Assembly: GCA_951406725.2 (NCBI GenBank)
Contig: OX597817.1
Span: forward strand, 26,908,001-26,972,000
Reading direction: 5' to 3'
DNA from: Octopus vulgaris
Taxonomy: Eukaryota
Length of the DNA stretch: 64,000 nucleotides
Shown here: positions 26,635-27,679 of the stretch, in pieces
How positions within the stretch are numbered: position 1 is the stretch's first letter
Layout of the letters: every line of letters starts with the position of its first letter
The notes under the pieces: model-generated
Databases searched by the model: none
What the model was told of the DNA's origin: nothing
What the model saw: the letters and a program-made list of their open reading frames with translations, nothing else
Made by a program: the position numbers and the translations under genes

Positions 26635-26933
26635 ATATATATGTATATATGTATATCAGTAATAATATAGGGTGAAATTAATTAATTTGGAATAATCATT
26701 AGATTTCGGCATGTAAAAGTCTCATTCGAGGAAAGTTTAAGTAATACTAAGTAATTAAGGGTTTAGCAACGAATTGCCTCACCACACACCGAATTTAGAA
26801 ATAGCAGTCAAAGAGTTATAGCTATTCTTTCTACTAAAAGGGAGATCTCAGTAAAAACACAGCACTTGAAAGGCAAACACAGACAGGTAAGAGAGAATGA
26901 AATGACGGCAATCTATCATACAATTTTAAGTCA

Positions 26934-27024
26934 CCTACGGACGTACGTTTCGAAATTAAGTTTTAGGAAAGCATAAGAATTAGATAATTATGTCTTACCC
27001 AACTTCTTTTCTCATCAGCGTAGG
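26934..27024 (-). ncRNA. Type I hammerhead ribozyme (mirror copy)
   Basis: Reverse complement of 27166-27256. Confidence 0.85.
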
Positions 27025-27165
27025 ACACTACAATTATGAATAATTGTATATTAAATTTTGAGATACTAGAAGGCATCATCTCAACTCAGTATCAGAGCGA
27101 GCTAAAGCCGTTACCAGTATCACCAAATTCAAAGTGTAATATACAATTATTCATAATTGTAGTGT

Positions 27166-27256
27166 CCTACGCTGATGAGAAAAGAAGTTGGGTAAGACAT
27201 AATTATCTAATTCTTATGCTTTCCTAAAACTTAATTTCGAAACGTACGTCCGTAGG
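27166..27256 (+). ncRNA. Type I hammerhead ribozyme, canonical core, long stem II
   Basis: ccuacg CUGAUGA gaaaagaaguu...aacuuaauuuc GAA acguacgu C cguagg. Predicted cleavage is after GUC (C27250), and stem III is the palindrome ACGUACGU. Confidence 0.85.
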
Positions 27257-27679
27257 TGACTTAAAATTGTATGATAGATTGCCGTCATTTCATTCTCTCT
27301 TACCTGTCTGTGTTTGCCTTTCAAGTGCTGTGTTTTTACTGAGATCTCCTTTTAGTAGAAAGAATAGCTATAACTCTTTGACTGCTATTTCTAAATTCGG
27401 TGTGTGGTGAGGCAATTCGTTGCTAAACCCTTAATTACTTAGTATTACTTAAACTTTCCTCGAATGAGGCTTTTACATGCCGAAATCTACTTGGTGTAAT
27501 TAATGATTATTCCAAATTAATTAATTTCACCCTATATTATTACTGATAACCATATTTTATCCCAGTAAATGACCACAGCATCTTGTCTTGGCTACACGCG
27601 GGTGGAAAGGGGTTGGTGACACAAACTTTCATTCACACTTATATATGTATATATATATATATATATATGTATGTATGAA

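Follow-up and report, generated by a model that had tools for sequence, protein, structure and literature searches.

Organisation of the locus

The stretch of Octopus vulgaris DNA analysed here (the window; 64,000 nt of contig OX597817.1) consists of microsatellites, short repeats and degenerate fragments of transposons, and contains one element built around a large palindrome. Repeat search and alignment place the two arms of this element at 26654-27053 (400 nt) and 27137-27548 (412 nt), each being the reverse complement of the other, which confirms the near-perfect inverted repeat of about 400 bp recorded in a first-pass annotation of the sequence. Three differences separate the arms: a substitution, a 1-bp indel and a 13-bp indel. 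The annotation had listed a few base differences and an indel of 12 bp; the former description holds, whilst the latter figure is the net difference in arm length. Three differences in 400 bp are also compatible with the young age that had been proposed for the insertion from its high arm identity. Both outer ends adjoin TA tracts, and the element begins at 26654 as first described; its right border, however, lies at 27640 (27638 in the annotation), and the 'spacer' between the arms belongs to the element. No second copy was found within the 64-kb window by blastn or nhmmer (best E-value 0.034). The features of the locus are as follows.

26499..26653 (approximate), no strand: left (TA)n target tract, interrupted by G/C, from the sequence
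26654..27053, minus strand: left arm, ribozyme-sense on this strand, from the alignment; its 3′ end (equivalent to 27548-27555) adjoins the TA tract and is the short end
27054..27137, minus strand: 'spacer', which in ribozyme-sense orientation lies ahead of the arm within the unit and forms the 5′ start of the left unit, from joints in contigs of other copies
27129..27137, no strand: central head-to-head junction with imperfect microhomology, 7 of 9 bases equalling the natural sequence upstream of the arm
27137..27548, plus strand: right arm, ribozyme-sense on this strand, from the alignment
27549..27640, plus strand: extension of 92 nt, one-sided, by which the right unit reaches the TA tract (the long end); absent from the left arm and covered by family contigs in 4/4 runs
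27635..27640, plus strand: 6-nt overlap with the reverse complement of 27132-27137, from printed ends compared by eye; joint 27131/27640 has an overlap of 6
27641..27677 (approximate), no strand: right (TA)n target tract, from the sequence
26720/27469: substitution between the arms, from the alignment
Behind 27347: 1-bp indel between the arms, the left arm having an extra C, from the alignment
27488-27500: 13-bp indel between the arms, absent from the left arm, from the alignment

Elsewhere in the window, other inverted pairs occur at 22100-22352, 23839-24320, 20432-20845 and 30307-31734; at 89-122 nt and 83-94 % identity, these apparently consist of the short interspersed repeats that are common in this genome. 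A decayed LINE-like piece at 28554-29963 harbours a weak C2H2 zinc finger (28554-28745, minus strand) and an RVT_1 match (29234-29554, plus strand, E-value 5e-7). Likely retrotransposon remnants are a weak RVT_1 fragment at 4543-4872 (minus strand, E-value 0.007) and a C2H2 zinc-finger frame at 56051-56392 (minus strand, E-value 1e-6), and Tc1/mariner-type transposase helix-turn-helix fragments lie at 32230-32478 (minus strand, HTH_48, E-value 7e-6) and 58631-58879 (plus strand, HTH_23, E-value 3e-6). A minisatellite of CA-rich units with a recurrent ACAGGT core occupies 22660-23171.

The hammerhead motif and its long stem II

Each arm contains one type I hammerhead, the two being located on opposite strands, and a motif scan recovers all core bases and stems I-III in both; the canonical hammerhead that had been noted on each strand is therefore present with an intact core. 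Cleavage is predicted from the motif to occur at the GUC triplets ending in C27250 (plus strand) and C26940 (minus strand). The parts of the motif are listed below.

27166..27256, plus strand: type I hammerhead, predicted cut 3′ of C27250, from the motif scan
26934..27024, minus strand: type I hammerhead, predicted cut 3′ of C26940, from the motif scan
27166-27171/27251-27256, plus strand: stem I, 6 bp, from the motif scan
27172-27178, plus strand: core CUGAUGA, from the motif scan
27179-27238, plus strand: stem II region, 60 nt, imperfect, with a 4-bp base (fold -12.4 kcal/mol)
27239-27241, plus strand: core GAA, from the motif scan
27242..27249, plus strand: stem III (2 bp) closed by a palindromic GUAC loop, together a self-complementary octamer, from the sequence

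A strict descriptor matching this motif returns 2 hits in the window, namely the motifs of the two arms, and 0 in 100 block-shuffled 64-kb windows. A looser descriptor returns 3 hits, the third of which (9227-9117, minus strand, stem II of 1 bp) is not credible. No hammerhead match in the window reaches the Rfam gathering score, and when matches up to an E-value of 10 are considered for 26500-27800, the 42 weak matches include no ribozyme and fall nearly all on the TA tracts; the long stem II is probably the reason that the motif is missed. This stem II had been described as much longer than that of minimal Penelope-like (PLE) hammerheads, and its 60-nt region agrees with that description. Amongst part of the rows in the PLE hammerhead table of the Craig 2021 supplement (PMC8557442), a long loop 2 occurs in two spike-moss elements only. 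Folded alone, stem II is more stable than most of its shuffles (z -2.84; 3/200 as good), and the motif as a whole is weakly better than its own (z -1.89; 12/200 as good).

Variation amongst family members, taken from the contigs described below, suggests compensatory change at two pairs of stem II. In the first possible pair, 27181 A>G (in loose ends) accompanies 27236 U>C, and in the second a C near 27189 accompanies 27228 A>G, changes that would be compensatory if carried by the same molecule. A change at 27246, reaching up to 12 % of depth, disrupts the stem III palindrome. By hand count, the 27 positions of the core, stem I and stem III contain 0 of the 30 variable places against about 1.4 expected, a difference that is not significant.

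Several other features of this region were observed. A perfect 8-bp AT-rich hairpin lies immediately 5′ of the hammerhead in each arm (27142-27161 and 27029-27048). Stem II contains a donor-like GGTAAG (27192, plus strand), and a long pyrimidine tract ends in AG at 27325; a putative intron at 27192-27325 (plus strand) would excise the 3′ half of the ribozyme. In Penelope of D. virilis an intron overlaps the element's own hammerhead. Variability of G27325 within the family argues against a strict splice acceptor. A metagenome scan with an 18-nt ribozyme motif yielded 4 loci, of which 0/4 have an upstream core or further similarity, and these were dismissed as chance matches.

A high-copy family with a unit of about 582 nt

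Of 24 public sequencing runs listed, 20 contain the stretch wholly or partly (9 studies, four organisms). Contigs of four runs (X1, X2, X3 and X6) were aligned onto 27040-27640, where 2,156, 3,343, 1,493 and 1,358 contigs could be placed, most of them 90-99 % alike, with 30 variable places. Summed contig depths do not represent a copy number, but the number of variant contigs (1,358-3,343 per run) demonstrates more than one locus, and the stretch is thus a member of a high-copy repeat family. At a number of places, 27233, 27288, 27308, 27454 and 27502 amongst them, the family majority differs from the window whilst both arms agree; both arms therefore derive from one subfamily.

The order of the unit becomes apparent from joints within contigs of other copies (within a listing that covered 32 of 8,404 pieces and 24 of 350 loose ends). 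Joint 27131/27640, between opposite strands, is present in one X1 contig (24-letter side) and one X3 contig (34-letter side); the latter is a 461-nt record with 9 other letters and hence represents another locus. Furthermore, 4 of the 24 loose-end rows listed (15 contigs from X3 and X6, matched by eye) run across this same joint. In other copies the extension accordingly continues directly into the reverse complement of the 'spacer', and a natural joint 27054/27137, found in one X1 contig, is identical to the border between left arm and spacer in the window itself. Read in ribozyme sense, the unit runs from arm (27137-27548) through extension (27549-27640), and reverse-complement spacer (27131 to 27054) to arm again. 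Pieced together from joints in separate contigs, the family unit appears to be a head-to-tail monomer of approximately 582 nt (581 as printed, plus 1 after overlap correction) with a GC content of 35 %. Amongst the pieces listed (32 of 8,404, and 24 of 350 loose ends) no complete head-to-tail dimer is found.

With regard to coding capacity, six-frame translation of the element is full of stops, and it contains no reverse transcriptase (RT) or GIY-YIG open reading frame. The two longest frames of the unit, 27024-27224 and 26767-26973, have no match in Pfam and so lend no support to a coding remnant in the spacer, and no GIY-YIG domain is found amongst the 150 longest of 290 filtered frames of the window. 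There is likewise no LTR-like direct repeat inside 27137-27640. As judged from sequence, the unit would therefore be classed as a non-coding, hammerhead-bearing, retrozyme-like repeat.

Some further irregularities were seen within the family. Summed contig depth is highest at 27376-27500 in 4/4 runs, which may be a part common to a larger related family, and X1 loose ends before 27354 (8 contigs) suggest a variant with another upstream part. Depth dips at 27103-27144 and 27628-27640 could be alignment edge effects. An ambiguous opposite-strand joint 27137/27497 in X2, with one breakpoint exactly at the spacer end, is either a shortened unit or another inversion.

Geometry of the insertion

When the locus is read in terms of this unit, it resolves into two parts. 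The right unit (arm plus extension, 504 nt, plus strand) has its 3′ end at the right TA tract, the left unit (spacer plus arm, minus strand) has its 3′ end at the left TA tract, and the 5′ ends of the two meet at 27137. The start of the left unit coincides with the end of the right one, 6 nt being shared between them (27635-27640 versus 27132-27137), and the two parts are therefore consecutive on a template of 1.7 units of which the 5′ part has been flipped. An independent start would land no more than 10 nt from the end of the other unit at 21/582 positions. By its sequence, the locus appears to be a 1.7-unit copy with an inverted 5′ part, displaying the geometry of twin priming.

At the central junction, exact homology amounts to 1 nt. 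Over 27129-27137, 7/9 positions equal the bases that naturally precede the arm, a level reached by 3/572 antisense 9-mers of the unit, which makes this a plausible annealing patch. No contig crosses the window's own central junction (27137/27138) amongst the 32 of 8,404 pieces and 24 of 350 loose ends listed. Other spacer-to-arm head-to-head junctions make up 4 of the 8 joint rows listed, one starting at 27548 and three at neither outer-end site; the sides of these four joints are 26-28 letters long, below the 31-letter bar of the tool, and fixed start sites for priming are accordingly weakly supported. On the short side, (AT)n is reached behind 27555 in 15 X2 contigs, within 7 nt of the outer end of the left arm. 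A 13-bp direct repeat (26644-26656 and 27640-27652) flanks the insertion and is a possible target-site duplication; it is not diagnostic, as such a repeat is expected by chance in a TA tract and would arise from 32/67 of the in-phase end points that the left tract offers.

Comparison with known elements

The comparisons that follow are with portions of the cited papers. The unit resembles metazoan non-LTR retrozymes (PMC7229834; Li 2026, bioRxiv 10.64898/2026.07.22.740005) in its type I hammerhead with a 6-bp stem I and a 2-bp stem III with tetraloop. It further shares with them a non-coding unit of low GC content, head-to-tail joining, high copy number and a proposed PLE-driven mobility (PMC7229834). 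Its 582 nt exceed the 150-450 bp of Cervera & de la Pena 2020 (PMC7229834) and lie inside the 51-972 bp range of Li, Clavereau & Pollet 2026 (10.64898/2026.07.22.740005), where retrozymes are described as PLE-dependent tandem units. Unlike in those elements, a 60-nt imperfect hairpin here replaces loop 2, and this copy is inverted rather than tandem, a word ('inverted') that occurs 0 times in the main text of PMC7229834. In the same Li 2026 study, 8/9 Xenopus dimers were without cleavage, and 'active' is defined there by two consecutive tandem units with complete hammerheads, whereas the hammerheads at the present locus are inverted. What is claimed is family membership, and not that this copy is an active source; the likeness is known from sequence, with cleavage and circles being predictions.

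The layout of the insertion, on the other hand, is that of endonuclease-bearing PLEs, including the Hydra clade. Their insertions display an inverted 5′-truncated copy at the 5′ end, a one-sided tail of 30-40 bp and a (TA)n bias, with Hydra-clade elements, one of them from Octopus bimaculoides, lying almost all within (TA)n (Craig 2021, PMC8557442). The one-sided extension here is longer, at 85-92 nt. A sense-strand type I hammerhead is also a PLE feature, and opposite-strand hammerhead pairs are already known in these elements (PMC4209133). The inverted 5′-truncated layout and the (TA)n flanks support the link to PLEs made in the first-pass annotation. Unlike PLEs, the element lacks an RT/GIY-YIG frame, and it has no motif in common with the PLE sequences considered in the Craig 2021 supplement (PMC8557442), in which 0/8 short exact motifs of the unit were found. 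A connection to Hydra-1_Obim or to Naiads was discarded on the same 0/8 result. Neither the 150 longest of the 290 filtered frames of the window nor the eight motifs in the supplement point to a driver PLE.

Two described mechanisms provide close parallels. In vitro, the PLE protein of PAc Poseidon cuts and extends both strands at AT-rich DNA (Frangieh 2024, PMC11167929). It uses two internal RT start sites on its RNA; uncleaved RNA is the main substrate and ribozyme cleavage is dispensable (PMC11167929). The present locus is similar in having a short and a long end attributable to two start sites and an AT-rich target where both strands would be cut and extended, and differs from the account in PMC11167929 in its end-meets-start inversion and non-coding template, as well as in enzyme and host. 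In L1 twin priming, the second DNA end primes inside the RNA, giving an inverted 5′ part and weak junction microhomology (Meyer 2010, PMC2837659), both of which are seen here. Unlike the L1 copies described there, this element has no poly(A) tail and shows a 6-nt overlap instead of an internal deletion. With a repeated unit as template, its two parts also share sequence and so create a long palindrome.

Predicted folding of the RNA

It had been proposed that a transcript from either strand would contain one ribozyme plus its full antisense, and this is so for read-through RNA. It had also been proposed that self-cleavage and long double-stranded RNA would compete during folding, and here the predictions are one-sided. 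Read-through RNA folds into a hairpin of -721 kcal/mol, compared with -583 kcal/mol when the ribozyme is constrained to form, a gap of approximately 138 kcal/mol. On either strand the antisense arm is synthesised first, and the 5′ strand of stem I is predicted to be paired to it before the cut site is transcribed. The balanced competition is thus not upheld, and a competition switch at this locus is, on these models, unlikely. In contexts other than read-through RNA, pair probabilities for stem I are 0.93-0.99 when 27137-27640 is folded alone and 0.04 in 27054-27300, i.e. in a transcript starting in the spacer.

With regard to the double-stranded RNA itself, it had been suggested that it could feed ADAR or RNAi. 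There is precedent for RNAi, as inverted Penelope copies in transgenic flies gave siRNAs matching the inverted regions (PMC3681739). Read-through RNA is accordingly predicted to form a 400-bp hairpin that blocks the ribozyme and, as a by-product, is a possible ADAR or Dicer substrate, making the locus a predicted source of double-stranded RNA, conditional on read-through transcription.

Dimeric cleavage through the stem III palindrome, as suggested for this motif, is plausible. For the isolated motif, the active monomer fold lies 3.2 kcal/mol above the minimum, which is a misfold pairing the core with the cut site, and the self-complementary stem III octamer forms a duplex of -9.8 kcal/mol; this duplex could rescue the active fold in a dimer, a mode of cleavage that has been proposed for metazoan hammerheads (Cervera & de la Pena 2014, PMC4209133). 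Against this, the two ribozymes lie on opposite strands and therefore cannot pair in cis, and invertebrate hammerheads with a 2-bp stem III, in coral and mussel retrozymes, are described as cleaving as monomers or single motifs (Cervera & de la Pena 2020, PMC7229834).

Origin of the inverted copy

The locus is probably a 1.7-unit retrozyme-like copy, the 5′ part of which was inverted by a Penelope-like enzyme priming one RNA from both DNA ends of a cut TA tract. Under such a scheme, a tandem source locus would be transcribed into a multimer, or into RNA that is cut by the hammerhead and ligated into a circle, and a PLE protein acting in trans would nick both strands of (TA)n. One DNA end would then prime at the short end (27548-27555) and copy 483 nt up to the priming site of the other (27635-27640), the second DNA end would copy 504 nt, and the two cDNA ends would join via the imperfect microhomology at 27129-27137. 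The template held two intact ribozyme sites, and was therefore either a multimer that had stayed uncut or a circle copied for more than one turn. Of these, the linear multimer is marginally favoured, as the 1-bp indel that distinguishes the arms is frequent within the family: the extra C accounts for approximately 31-42 % of depth at its place in 4/4 runs. It is possible that this C instead arose by slippage after copying of a circle. Neither the substitution nor the 13-bp deletion appears in the list of family variants. The most fitting view of the palindrome is that it arose incidentally when a 582-nt repeat unit inserted, rather than serving as a device.

The alternatives largely concern the step at which the two parts came to face each other. 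Were the unit the terminal repeat (pLTR) of an autonomous PLE, the locus would be two 5′-truncated 3′ ends set head to head, derived by dual priming from a single RNA or from two. Inverted 5′-truncated copies with one-sided tails are the standard PLE layout and Octopus bimaculoides is recorded with a Hydra PLE that targets (TA)n (both Craig 2021, PMC8557442), opposite-strand hammerhead pairs 100-700 bp apart are reported from Schistosoma (PMC4209133), an indel that is a common variant suits two templates, and the 326 loose ends beyond the 24 of 350 listed could hide junctions into a coding frame. In other copies, however, the extension enters the unit's own start and not a frame, and independent truncation would reproduce the end-meets-start arrangement at only the 21/582 positions given above. 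The 95-nt Hydra-1_Obim hammerhead row in PMC8557442 has a different sequence and a short stem II, and the part of the supplement compared contains none of the eight unit motifs; a pLTR origin is for these reasons rather unlikely. An identical order of parts would also result if a head-to-tail 1.7-mer had inserted first and its 504-nt 5′ part had been inverted later, in place, at the DNA level, and the inverted 6-nt duplication at both breakpoints would fit a staggered-break inversion. Such an event needs one breakpoint exactly on the edge of the element, and both the other head-to-head junctions of the family (4 of 8 joint rows listed) and the published frequency of inverted copies amongst PLE insertions, as presented in PMC8557442, point to the insertion step instead, leaving inversion in place improbable.

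That the palindrome is an artefact of assembly or library preparation (a foldback chimera, or a misjoin in a repeat) has to be considered given that high-copy repeats are difficult to assemble, that the best run contains 0.73 of sampled words and that the central junction is without a contig amongst the 32 of 8,404 pieces listed. The arms nevertheless differ at three places, the inversion ends at the edges of the element without including the flanks, exact homology at the junction is a single nucleotide and the geometry fits a biological mechanism, making an artefact very improbable. Least probable of all is a regulatory switch maintained by selection, with self-cleavage competing against hairpin formation. 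Both ribozyme cores are intact, and siRNAs did arise from the inverted Penelope copies of transgenic flies (PMC3681739); yet intact cores are expected in any young copy, folding favours one side by the margin given above with the antisense arm first on both strands, and no host gene is recognised around the site amongst the frames of the window.

A more far-reaching version of the preferred reading, that of one RNA primed from both DNA ends, can be offered tentatively, as something that may well not hold. Here, two PLE reverse transcriptases would simultaneously copy a single circular ribozyme RNA of 582 nt, beginning at two fixed starts approximately 90 nt apart, with one halting exactly at the start of the other. 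Each insertion would then be a perfect palindrome, whose read-through RNA would shut off the ribozyme and feed double-stranded RNA to editing or RNAi, and the long stem II might be a new type I subtype maintained under covariation.

Significance

The element is a new family of a known class, the retrozyme-like repeats, in an insertion layout already published for PLEs. The 582-nt family may be unreported. Amongst open-licence papers retrieved by literature search and considered by their titles and the beginnings of their abstracts, none describes it or twin priming of retrozymes. As a single locus its value is modest, with the layout having been published, the enzyme being deduced and the RNA being predicted. 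It does, however, touch on two matters that the portions of the literature cited here state to be open, namely the origin of inverted and tandem PLE insertions (Craig 2021, PMC8557442) and whether PLE enzymes copy animal retrozymes from circles (Li 2026, 10.64898/2026.07.22.740005; PMC7229834). A young copy in which the arms meet end to start constitutes a readable record of a PLE insertion step and, if two enzymes were indeed to copy one circle, the element would seed its own silencing.
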